Shown here: one piece after another, positions 4,948 through 7,443 of the stretch | Layout of the letters: the number at the start of each line of letters is the position of its first letter | Position numbering within the stretch: the first letter of the stretch is position 1 | Origin: a virus | Length of the DNA: 64,000 nucleotides | UHGV virus genome: UHGV-0300374 | Direction: 5' to 3' (one strand) | The notes under the pieces: generated by a model | What the model was told of the DNA's origin: nothing | Databases searched by the model: none | Seen by the model: the letters and a program-made list of their open reading frames with translations, nothing else | Position numbers and translations under genes: made by a program

Positions 4948-5505
4948 GTGATAGATATGGAAAAAGATAACTTAAAAGATGTTGAAGGTAACTATCTAGT
5001 CCTTGACTGGAAGGATGTTCGGGAAGCACTCTCCGAAGAAAATCTTGACTGGTTCGAACAAATTATCTTTGCAGTACGGCATAACCGAGAAGTTGAAAAT
5101 GGTAAAGAGCCATTAGAAGGAATCTTTGTAGAGAGGTCTTATCCGTTCTATGAAGACACTTTGCAGAAAGTTAAGATGTACTTTAAACAGAAGAACCGTA
5201 AAGTGGTCACTATGGTATCTCTTGGTGGACAGAGTATGTCTGTGATGGAAGATATCAACCCTAAGAGACCGAGTAAAGGCGTTTGTATAAAAATCACAGG
5301 ACATGAAGAGTATATCTCAGTTGATGACTTTAGTGCATTCTGTAATGGCTCTTGTGTCTTTAATGGTTTTCACTATGATATCCGAGTGTACCCAATCAAG
5401 GGAGATGATATCATGATGCAGGTATTTGATAACAACAATGGCTTTACTCATTTTTATCAGACAACCAAGTCATCACTAAAAACAGTTCTGGAAACACTGA
5501 TTTAA
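4948..5505 (+). CDS. hypothetical protein
   Basis: 185-aa ORF, last gene of the plus-strand early block. Confidence 0.45.
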   Translation: MIDMEKDNLKDVEGNYLVLDWKDVREALSEENLDWFEQIIFAVRHNREVENGKEPLEGIFVERSYPFYEDTLQKVKMYFKQKNRKVVTMVSLGGQSMSVMEDINPKRPSKGVCIKITGHEEYISVDDFSAFCNGSCVFNGFHYDIRVYPIKGDDIMMQVFDNNNGFTHFYQTTKSSLKTVLETLI

Positions 5506-5514
5506 AATATCTTA

Positions 5515-5542
5515 AGAGCCTCCTTAATTGGGGGCTTTTTAT
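5515..5542 (+). terminator. probable rho-independent terminator
   Basis: Imperfect hairpin AGAGCCTCC-TTAATT-GGGGGCT followed by TTTTTATT. Confidence 0.4.
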
Positions 5543-5544
5543 TG

Positions 5545-7130
5545 AGTAAAATTTACGAAATTTATATTTTTATAAAATTTTATCGGTTGTCCCAACCTCT
5601 GGGTCACCATCATATGTGAACAAAATATCTACCCTTCTTAACAACCTTCTTAATCTTACTCTCTATATAGTTATATAGTACTATATAGTATCTTAGTAAC
5701 TATCTAGTGGTCTTAATAGCCCTCTGTATAGCCCTTCTAAATAGCCATCTAAACACTCTTCTAACAAGCCTTCTAAACAACCTATACAATCATCTTAACC
5801 ATCTCTCTACACACTCTTAGAAGCTCCTATACACCTCTTAATCTCTATGTAAGCTATGATACTCTCTATAGGTGTTCACTAGGTATTACTAAGCCTCTAT
5901 ATAGACTGTTTTAGCCAACTTAACAGGAATATCTTTACAGACCTTATCTCACAAGGTCTAACACGGTACTAACAAGGTATCTTATAAGCCTGTTTCTACC
6001 TGTATTTTAGAAAGACTGTATAGGTAATTATTCAGAATTTTAAAATTTTTATAAAATAGGACTATCAAGTCATTTTTTAGGGTCTTTGAAGGAACTGAAA
6101 AATATCTGATTAGGATGTATATCTGCTTGGTAGCCCTTAACAGCTCCCTTACAAGTACTTTGCAAAATTTTAAAATATCCTTAACAATCTCTTAACAGTT
6201 CTCACATCTTCTTAACAACTCTTCAAAGGTCTTAACAGATTCTTAACAAGTCTAACAAGGTTGTAACAGTTTTCTAACAAGACTTAATAGGGCTTTACAG
6301 AATCTTAACAGATGACTAACAAGAGCTAACAAGTTAATTTTAAAGAGTTATTTTGTTAAGATAATTAACAAGTTTCTAACAAGTGTTTAATCTTTTTAAC
6401 AAGCTATTAACATGGTCACTATCTCTTTCTTATCGTTCCCTTTCCCTTCTTAGTGATTCCTTAAACATACCTCTTAAAAGCTCTCTATAGCTCTCTATAG
6501 CTCTTTATAAGCCCCTTTAAGCCTCTTCCTAGTATTTACCCCCCAACTGTACAGATAGCTCTTTATAGGTCTTTACAGGAGCTTTTAAGGCTATGTCAAA
6601 GACTCTTACAAGGCTTTTACGTGGTCTTAACAGAGATTTAACAAGGGGCTAACAAGTTGCTAACAAGTGCCTTAAAAGCATAACTATGTAGGGTTTGTTA
6701 AGAAATTGTTAAGAAAATGTTAAGGGGGCTAGCATTTACGTAACTTTATAGCCTCTTTTACGTAACTTTGAAGTAACTTTATAGCCCCTATAACATGTTT
6801 TTTAGTGACTAGCAAGGGGGTTGTTTAACCATTCACAAGATACTAACCAGCCTATAAGCTTACACCCTTATAAGATTCTTTTAAGCCTCTATAAAGCCCT
6901 GTAAAGAGCTTTTTAAGATAGGTTAATGCAATCCCTTAAGTTAGGTTGATAAGGCTGTTATAGAGCTTTATAGAGCGTTTAAATGGGCCATCCCCTTTCT
7001 GGGGTTATTGGCTTTTATTTAAGTTGATTTGATAAAAGGTTATAGAGTAGACTATAGAGTTATTGCTTTTAAGGTCTGATAAGATTCTGGAAAGGAAAGG
7101 GAAAGGGATTGTATAAGGATTCGATAGACG
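5545..7130. repeat. ORF-free block of short degenerate direct repeats (YTAACAAG, CTNTATAG, CTTTTAAG units) at roughly 10-11 bp spacing
   Basis: No ORF of 60 aa or more on either strand across 1.6 kb; dense recurrence of cttaacaag / ctaacaag / ctctatag / ctttatag words. Confidence 0.6.
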
Positions 7131-7156
7131 TAAAAAAGCCCCTATTTAAAGGGGCT
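7131..7156 (-). terminator. rho-independent terminator ending the minus-strand small-gene array
   Basis: Minus-strand AGCCCCTTTAAATAGGGGCT hairpin followed by TTTTTTAC. Confidence 0.5.
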
Positions 7157-7194
7157 GTTCAGGTATCTGGGGCTATTTAGCCCCGCTGCGTCGA

Positions 7195-7443
7195 TTAGTT
7201 ATAATCTTGTTTGTTGTAGTACAGGGAGACGATTTTTTCTCCCCAATAGTGATAAGTATAACCATCCTTGAGAACTTCTTGTTTTGTTTCCTCCCAGAAC
7301 TCATCCGAAGGATTATAATCTTTGATGGTCTGACTGATAAGACCTTTCACCATTTCAAAGGCGTTATCAGTGCCTGCAATGTCAAATTTAACATCCAGAG
7401 AGGAAAAACCGAACTCGTTAACAGTAGCGCGGATAGTTGCCAT
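7195..7443 (-). CDS. hypothetical protein
   Basis: 82-aa ORF preceded by a repeat cassette with RBS. Confidence 0.4.
   Translation of the reverse strand: MATIRATVNEFGFSSLDVKFDIAGTDNAFEMVKGLISQTIKDYNPSDEFWEETKQEVLKDGYTYHYWGEKIVSLYYNKQDYN

Follow-up and report, generated by a model that had tools for sequence, protein, structure and literature searches.

A conserved non-coding block of phased short words at the probable concatemer junction of a Felix O1-type phage genome

The virus genome UHGV-0300374, analysed here as a window of 64,000 nucleotides (nt), contains between two convergent gene blocks a non-coding stretch of 1.65 kb (positions 5541-7194; hereafter the block) that is filled with short degenerate words. 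The block very probably represents the terminal region, or concatemer junction, of a myovirus of the Felix O1 type, with a genome that ends in exact, non-permuted short direct terminal repeats. An earlier reading made from the sequence alone (the sequence-only reading) had offered three candidates, namely a replication origin, an array for protein binding or packaging, and a location close to the physical genome ends, and had held that the choice cannot be told from sequence. Comparison with relatives decides for the terminal repeat and concatemer junction: the mapped ends of relatives support the terminal-packaging option, and the origin is left without positive support. That reading had also proposed a check against related phages, in which the region proved not to be absent; it occurs in 256 phage records, and its conservation exceeds that of the neighbouring genes.

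Of these 256 matching records, 198 cover at least 80% of the block. Nearly all belong to Felixounavirus (Felix O1-like myoviruses), at 73-94% identity, and these phages have Escherichia, Salmonella, Shigella and Citrobacter as hosts. Our first guess, a T5-like phage with an injection-stop region, was rejected since the window is Felixounavirus by sequence match. In Escherichia phage vB_EcoM-Pr103Blw (Pr103Blw), a 581-bp 'short direct terminal repeat region', identified by PhageTerm (PMC8303462), is annotated at both ends of the record. The first base of that record corresponds to window position 6729 and its last base to 6129, the window lying in the opposite orientation to the record. Four records begin and end with one identical stretch, of 581 bp in Pr103Blw, 580 bp in E9, 613 bp in Ro111lw and 628 bp in NBEco004, and all eight of their ends land exactly on window 6129 or 6729. 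Terminal repeats were reported with PhageTerm in the papers on relatives, including Ro111lw and E9 (PMC11737134, PMC6454146), and the records of ZX4221, I14.1, pEP20 and GE_vB_7A begin or stop at the same base or at most 2 nt away. Experimental mapping is available for UAB_Phi87, in which two SpeI fragments were the first to be lost on Bal31 digestion and a terminal repeat of 608 bp was read by run-off sequencing (PMC4837284); the repeat sequence in the supplement of that paper maps to window 6127-6721. A 618-bp 'DTR' in the record of UAB_69, from the same laboratory, corresponds to window 6127-6731.

Because the mapped ends of relatives coincide with its edges, the segment 6129-6729 is almost certainly the terminal-repeat region, with edges near these positions, give or take 2-3 nt, as judged by homology. 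Virion DNA would carry one copy of the repeat at each end, and the window would be a collapsed assembly with one copy; no second copy was found elsewhere in the 64 kb. The flanking segments 5541-6128 and 6730-7194 would then be unique non-coding arms that adjoin the repeat in the concatemer. The resulting layout is as follows.

6129..6729, unstranded: direct terminal repeat, 601 bp, one copy here (by homology; edges uncertain by 2-8 nt; PMC4837284, PMC8303462, PMC6454146)
5541..6128, unstranded: unique non-coding arm A, which maps to Pr103Blw 582-1212, right after the annotated left terminal repeat
6730..7136, unstranded: unique non-coding arm B, which maps to Pr103Blw 87384-87840, right before the right terminal repeat

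In virion orientation, the DNA starts 5'-GCCCCCTTAACATTTTCTTAACAA and finishes GTTAAGGGCTACC-3'. Arm A lies just inside the end whose repeat copy starts GCCCCCTTAACA and holds phased C/T-rich words, for example CTCTATATAG, CTTCTAAAC and CTAACAAG. The words of arm B include CTTTATAG, CTTTTAAG, CTGTAAAG and GGAAAG, the last occurring as a tandem. We also noted that TCCCTTTCCCTTC (6437-6450, in the repeat) is the reverse complement of GGAAAGGAAAGGGAAAGGGA (7089-7108, in arm B), about 650 nt away.

The same few hundred base pairs stand at both ends in four close relatives, as is characteristic of a T7-type short direct terminal repeat. Other packaging modes were considered as well. Headful (pac) packaging with permuted ends does not agree with independent records from several laboratories that share their first and last base, and Bal31 digestion of UAB_Phi87 shows discrete ends, against permutation (PMC4837284). 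Cohesive (cos) ends are incompatible with a 600-bp duplication at both record ends of relatives; the restriction pattern of UAB_Phi87 was unaltered by heating (PMC4837284). A long terminal repeat of the T5 type spans about 10 kb with pre-early genes, in contrast to the 601 bp without genes found here. The large terminases of Felix O1-like phages fall in a terminal-repeat group (PMC4837284).

Two database records deserve mention in this context. GU169904.1, a 147-kb record of Staphylococcus phage SA1, holds the whole Felixounavirus terminal block at 135357-137043 (87.8% identity, 100% coverage), and it probably mixes two phages or is misassembled. A metagenomic contig of 81.6 kb (IMG/VR UViG_3300045988_004931, locus L014) breaks off within the repeat near window 6714; its tip carries a short duplicated piece, and its end looks like an assembly break due to the repeat.

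Both edges of the repeat carry conserved motifs. The caret marks the inferred cut.

6116..6137, unstranded: boundary motif TGTATATCTGCTT^GGTAGCCCT at the first repeat edge, with the cut inferred between 6126 and 6129
6722..6731, unstranded: boundary motif AAGGGGGC^TA at the second repeat edge, invariant across three genera

We aligned the block across genera with Suspvirus SUSP2, Mooglevirus Sf17 and Mordin, and phage pEC-M719-6WT.1, and found that 6116-6137 is likewise invariant across Felixounavirus, Suspvirus and Mooglevirus. Among 21 Felixounavirus sequences the repeat edges are invariant or nearly so: the motif at 6116-6137 shows no change, GATGTATATCTGCTTGGTAGCCCTTAACA is unchanged except for a second-base substitution in two, TGTTAAGGGGGCTAGCATTTACGTAAC except for single substitutions in a few, and the motif AAGGGGGC^TA is kept save one substitution in one sequence (L009, GGGGGT). 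The two motifs mirror each other. Read inward on the opposite strand, the second-edge motif is TAGCCCCCTTAACA, the mirror of TAGCCCTTAACA at the first edge, so that inward reading of both ends gives the same motif (GGTAGCCCTTAACA at 6129 and TAGCCCCCTTAACA at 6731 on the other strand). The edges share the word TAGCCC(CC)TTAACA, at 6131-6142 and 6718-6731, in inverted relative orientation, and this inverted pair was also picked up by the repeat finder (as I8).

The same architecture is seen in a fourth genus. Erwinia phage M7 (Kolesnikvirus) has a BLAST match to the block of just 85 nt, and its record carries an exact 444-bp terminal repeat with 16 TTAACA/TGTTAA words, compared with 3 in 4.1 kb of flanking coding DNA; its right arm holds 11 TTCTAA words. 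The M7 junctions align to the inferred ones at 55/78 and 52/77 identity, with cuts at most 2-3 nt apart. The first motif (6116-6137) aligns to the right junction of M7, GGCCACTAA^GTAGATATACA, and the second (6722-6731) to its left junction. The putative cut sites are thus both invariant in three genera and alignable to the junctions of M7.

Throughout the block, degenerate 8-nt words (CTTAACAAG, CTCTATAG, CTTTTAAG) follow one another at a spacing of 10-11 bp. Compared with expectations derived from the rest of the window outside the block, TAACAAG occurs in 13 copies versus 0.2, all on the + strand, CTAACA in 10 versus 0.4, TATAG in 16 versus 1.1 and CTTAAC in 11 versus 0.6. The combined word density per 500 nt amounts to 9, 19 and 12 in the three bins of the block and never exceeds 3 in the remaining bins of the 64 kb. 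Base autocorrelation, with z scores computed against 147 background windows, revealed maxima at lags of 10-11 (z = 8.0, 8.8), 21-22 (4.6, 6.8) and 31-32 (5.2, 5.9). Of the distances from one AG to the next, 49% fall between 9 and 12 nt, the background averaging 22% and never exceeding 31%. From 59 well-formed units we obtained the profile R-G-n-n-Y-T-W-W-H-A-A-G, in which each unit consists of an 8-nt word CT....AG followed by a spacer of 2-4 nt. Phase coherence is local, with Fourier peaks at 10.1-11.6 bp that stand clearly above background only within 6129-6729. Strict long-range coherence at 10.5 bp was rejected, the modest Fourier peaks being spread over that range of periods.

Tandem Repeats Finder (TRF) and a repeat finder resolved individual arrays with units of 10, 11, 12, 22 and 31 nt. 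The TAACA words are concentrated in the terminal repeat, which holds 20 of 27. Its most conspicuous word features are listed here.

6137..6414, + strand: about 16 YTAACAR words arrayed in the same orientation, at spacings of 9-11, 20 or 31 nt (word starts 6138 to 6408)
6353..6371, unstranded: palindrome TTGTTAA-GATAA-TTAACAA, part of a cross-genus invariant run of 26 nt (6347-6372)
6479..6579, + strand: 10-bp tandem words of the type AGCTCTCTAT, CTTTATAG, from the repeat finders
6627..6669, + strand: 11-bp tandem TAACAAG words with the consensus TAACAAGTGGC (TRF: 2.8 copies at 6639-6669)
6695..6729, - strand: inverted 11-bp TGTTAAGAAAw tandem that abuts the second repeat edge and ends in TGTTAAGGGGGC

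The palindrome is formed by the sole inverted word of the 6137-6414 array, at 6354. In the 6627-6669 tandem the four TAACA starts are 6628, 6639, 6650 and 6661, and the inverted tandem comprises three TGTTAAG copies (6696, 6707 and 6718), the terminal TGTTAAGGGGGC included.

In 21 relatives, between 2 and 5 copies of the TGTTAAGAAAw unit stand beside the second edge. Variation in array copy number, at 6695-6729 and at 6730-6790, was noted in loci L008, L009, L010, L019 and L023; the latter interval, just outside the second edge, holds a 33-nt unit, TTTACGTTACTTTGAAGTAACTTnnTAGCCCC, that is expanded in L023. The 11-nt and 33-nt arrays are slippage hot spots. Changes in these units account for the spread of repeat lengths from 580 to 628 bp, and such insertions and deletions (indels) are tolerable for an array of sites and incompatible with coding sequence. 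Three relatives (L017, L022 and L025) have a 24-nt insertion, TTGATTCGGTAGAATCTACCTCAT, between 6113 and 6114, 15 nt outside the left edge, and this insertion holds a small hairpin, GGTAGAATCTACC.

In the cross-genus alignment, identity across the block is 81-85%, compared with 63-74% for the adjacent parts of the flanking genes. The block contains 24 invariant runs of at least 10 nt (10-28 nt), among them an AT-rich palindromic run at 6041-6059, a run at the + strand terminator (5531-5550) and the following element of arm A, an arm whose mean cross-genus conservation is 0.75.

5660..5687, + strand: 28-nt block TCTCTATATAGTTATATAGTACTATATA, invariant across three genera

Within the block, TTAACA/TGTTAA positions are conserved at 0.94 versus 0.72 elsewhere (circular-shift p about 0.001), and TATAG/CTATA positions at 0.89 versus 0.72. 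Taken together, these comparisons show edges, words and arms bearing the signature of purifying selection, with the 8-nt words as the apparent constrained units and the spacers as the apparently freer parts.

The block lies between convergent genes. The + strand open reading frames (ORFs) stop at 5505 and the - strand ORFs at 7195, and each gene block is closed by a terminator.

5520..5544, + strand: Rho-independent terminator closing the + strand gene block (hairpin 5520-5534, then a T-run)
7137..7156, - strand: Rho-independent terminator closing the - strand gene block (hairpin 7156-7137, then a T-run)

The record of phage AYO145A annotates the two homologous terminators, and in annotated relatives the block is always flanked by the same convergent small genes of unknown function. 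For nine flanking proteins, searches of PHROGs and Pfam matched only PHROGs families of unknown function and no Pfam domain. The segment 5541-7194 holds only short ORFs: the largest is 37 amino acids (aa) long, and there is no ORF of at least 40 aa between 5505 and 7173. Its GC content is 30-34%, the + strand GC skew is -0.35 (strongly C over G) at the left and flips in sign at the right, and AT-rich patches lie at 5560-5580, 6037-6059, 6160-6180 and 6330-6365. The descriptive part of the sequence-only reading is in accordance with all of this. It had described a stretch without any ORF of 60 aa or more, bounded by terminators at both ends and made of recurring degenerate short words, for which the enrichment and density are indeed far above chance; the run that it quoted, tcttaacagattcttaacaagtctaacaaggttgtaacagttttctaacaag, is located at about 6230-6281, and the helical spacing that it noticed is present, with coherence that is local rather than global.

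Several other identities for the block were tried and rejected. Hidden coding does not agree with a longest ORF of 37 aa and with the 11- and 33-nt indels that separate relatives. A structured RNA or transfer RNA (tRNA) locus was likewise rejected: at gathering score Rfam gave no match in the whole 64-kb window, the only two hits (5484-5590) being at chance level; Rfam by E-value gave nothing meaningful on the block; and ARAGORN found no tRNA. A promoter array was also rejected, with sigma-70-like sites not enriched in the block (8 versus 6.8 expected). Some GenBank records do call coding sequences (CDSs) inside the block, namely CDSs of 25-50 codons in OL656108, PP886229 and OQ845957 (loci L005, L027 and L038), with up to six of them in pEC-M719-6WT.1. 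These are probably over-predictions, because the relatives differ by 11-nt indels and no reading frame is conserved.

A separate compositional observation concerns the whole window. GATC is wholly absent from the 64 kb (0 observed versus about 224-229 expected), and CCGG (13 versus 33 expected) and GGCC (25 versus 53 expected) are depleted. The absence of GATC suggests strong selection against Dam/MutH or DpnII/MboI-type recognition, and it is not mentioned in the Felix O1 genome paper.

These data lead us to a model for the packaging of this genome. The terminase would recognise the junction in the concatemer and cut or nick it at the mirrored pair of boundary motifs. Strand-displacement synthesis would duplicate the intervening 601 bp and give each genome a full repeat, in line with the scheme of copying at the concatemer junction proposed for T7. 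After infection, the repeats would supply homology for concatemer formation. For the words we tentatively suggest, by analogy with other packaging sites and with somewhat less than even confidence, a role as phased candidate binding sites for packaging recognition. Their spacing of 10-11 bp would place them on one face of the helix, where they could bind a recognition protein, for instance a phage protein akin to a small terminase or a bending protein of the host, and the bound protein would build a wrapped complex marking the junction. The two terminators would keep convergent transcription out of this complex. A bolder version, which we regard as possible though distinctly doubtful, is that the whole 1.65-kb block is a single cis-acting 'telomere organiser', whose roughly 60 phased YTWWHWAG words would be bound by a putative phage protein. 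Wrapped by this protein, the junction would form a nucleoprotein particle on which terminase docks and which might in addition protect the ends or serve to initiate replication. If true, such an organiser would explain why the block is better conserved than its neighbour genes across at least three genera, and why similar word arrays occur in unrelated terminal-repeat phages such as T7; to our knowledge, no function has been established for the word arrays in the end regions of T7.

Several points weigh against the terminal-repeat and packaging explanation. The edges vary by 2-8 nt with the method, PhageTerm giving 6129 and 6729 and run-off sequencing 6127 and either 6721 or 6731; the ends of the phage studied here are placed by homology to relatives at 85-93% identity; and the large terminase gene sits outside the window. 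The repeated words may aid the aligner and so inflate the contrast in conservation between words and spacers. Exact sites for IHF are absent, with one-mismatch versions only (9 versus 3.8 expected). Curvature prediction, a check that the sequence-only reading had proposed, yielded a slight excess in a wedge model (a mean of 7.7 versus 6.8 degrees per turn, which is weak evidence), and no curvature is predicted for the TAACA array itself. Intrinsic curvature was rejected on these grounds as the main property of the block, and the result may weakly favour protein-induced over intrinsic bending.

Among the rival explanations, it has to be considered whether the block is, or also holds, a replication origin, with the words as iterons and the AT-rich patches as unwinding elements. 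We consider this unlikely. The GC content of 0.30-0.34, the direct, phased words in one orientation and the invariant AT-rich palindromic run at 6041-6059 are all features that an origin could have, and the arms outside the repeat are more conserved than cutting alone would seem to need. The secondary origins of T7 (phiOL and phiOR) adjoin its terminal repeats, and the phiOL and phiOR promoters are visible in the T7 record. However, iteron origins consist of a few repeats of 17-22 bp clustered by one unwinding element, whereas the block has about 60 degenerate 8-nt words in units of 10-11 nt over 1.65 kb, AT-rich patches being present. No DnaA boxes, exact IHF sites or Chi-like sites were found in the block, and no initiator, helicase-loader or DNA-binding domain is recognisable in the genes adjoining it. 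Many phage origins are activated by transcription, but terminators insulate this block on both sides and its promoter-like sites are close to expectation. Moreover, the terminal repeat already accounts for every positional fact.

The words might instead be sites for a nucleoid protein of the host (IHF, H-NS or Fis) or for a phage end-binding protein, with a role in exonuclease protection or the control of ejection, which we find about as improbable as an origin. AT-rich phased DNA is a typical nucleoid-protein target and the very ends of the virion DNA are filled with words, but the conserved word positions include specific C and G (CT....AG) and not mere AT-richness. The only hint for this reading is the excess of one-mismatch IHF sites: tandem TAACAA words 11 bp apart generate TAACAAnnnnTTA, one mismatch from the IHF core WATCAANNNNTTR, yet an exact IHF site is absent. 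Ejection control is further disfavoured in that two-step DNA entry is not known for the genus, and the repeat here, 0.6 kb without genes, is unlike the 10-kb T5 repeat with its injection-stop region. Such a role could, on the other hand, coexist with packaging recognition. Hardly any credence can be given to the view that, beyond two cut sites, the block has no sequence-specific function and is low-complexity filler or decayed genes expanded by slippage. Filler would be expected to vary in copy number, as the 11-nt unit (2-5 copies) and the expanded 33-nt unit do among relatives, and to contain many short tandem arrays of the TRF type, as the block does; it would not be expected to show conservation above that of flanking coding genes in three genera, 24 invariant runs of 10-28 nt or words more conserved than spacers. 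The M7 repeat, moreover, keeps the same word class though its sequence is otherwise barely alignable.

The terminal-repeat reading sets the genome ends of this phage at about 6129 and 6729 and marks the present sequence as a collapsed assembly. For annotation, the genome should be opened here, a second repeat copy of about 601 bp added and the small ORFs called in the block removed. Short exact terminal repeats at this place are already known for Felix O1-like phages from experiment (UAB_Phi87), PhageTerm and GenBank annotation, and the finding opens no new kind of biology. We found no account of the phased words, the mirrored boundary motif or the conservation of the block above that of its neighbouring genes in the UAB_Phi87 paper (PMC4837284), the Felix O1 genome paper, the comparative paper on Felixounavirus or the essentiality (PhageMaP) study of Bas63; the last three also hold no functional data on the region. 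Word architecture, mirrored motif and strong conservation thus appear to be undescribed, and are modest, testable additions. They define compact, highly conserved candidate packaging signals, comprising two mirrored boundary motifs and phased word arrays, which are relevant to the engineering or rebooting of Felix O1-type therapeutic phages.

The closest known counterparts are the terminal repeats of Ounavirinae (UAB_Phi87, 608 bp; UAB_69, 618 bp; Ro111lw, 613 bp; Pr103Blw, 581 bp; M7, 444 bp), which are homologous to the one described here at 83-93% identity. They share the convergent gene setting, the boundary motifs and the word content with the block, and nothing essential is different; the length found here, 601 bp, differs only through the copy number of the 11-nt unit.

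Bacteriophage T7 resembles the block in its exact 160-bp terminal repeat and in degenerate words of 7-8 nt (CCTAAAG, CATAAAG, CTTAAAG) that occur inside the repeat and in both non-coding arms. These flanking arrays are reportedly the SRL and SRR of Dunn and Studier (1983), and packaging signals of T7 are said to have been described by Chung and Hinkle (1990). T7 is known to package from concatemers and to duplicate its repeat in the process, and we propose the same here. The two junctions have no sequence homology, the T7 words lie about 13 nt apart (lag-13 autocorrelation 0.54) rather than 10-11 nt, and the block is about three times longer than the T7 junction. The T7 arms carry inward-pointing promoters (A0-A3, phiOL and phiOR), whereas here both gene blocks are transcribed towards the junction and terminated before it. 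In the T7 record (NC_001604, 1-400 and 39600-39937; loci L039 and L040) the words resemble the CT....AG words CTTTTAAG, CTGTAAAG and CTCTATAAAG; as the phages are unrelated, the resemblance may be fortuitous or may reflect a host-factor preference common to both.

In lambda cosB (R1-R3 plus an IHF site) and SPP1 pacL/pacR, short helically phased sites lie beside the terminase cleavage site, which is the mechanism proposed here for the words. These phages differ in having cohesive ends or headful, permuted ends and far fewer sites, and binding of the small terminase subunit has been demonstrated for them, the words described here being putative binding sites. The long terminal repeats of Twort-like and SPO1-like phages are reportedly bracketed by short inverted repeats (Lobocka et al., 2012); the likeness is that the repeat edges carry the same short motif inverted, here TAGCCC(CC)TTAACA, and the difference is that those repeats are several kilobases long, bear genes and show no homology to ours. 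With iteron origins, finally, the block shares direct repeats in one orientation, helical spacing and AT-rich DNA. It is distinguished from them by words that are shorter, far more numerous and degenerate, with no adjacent initiator gene and no DnaA boxes, and by a position that coincides with mapped genome ends.

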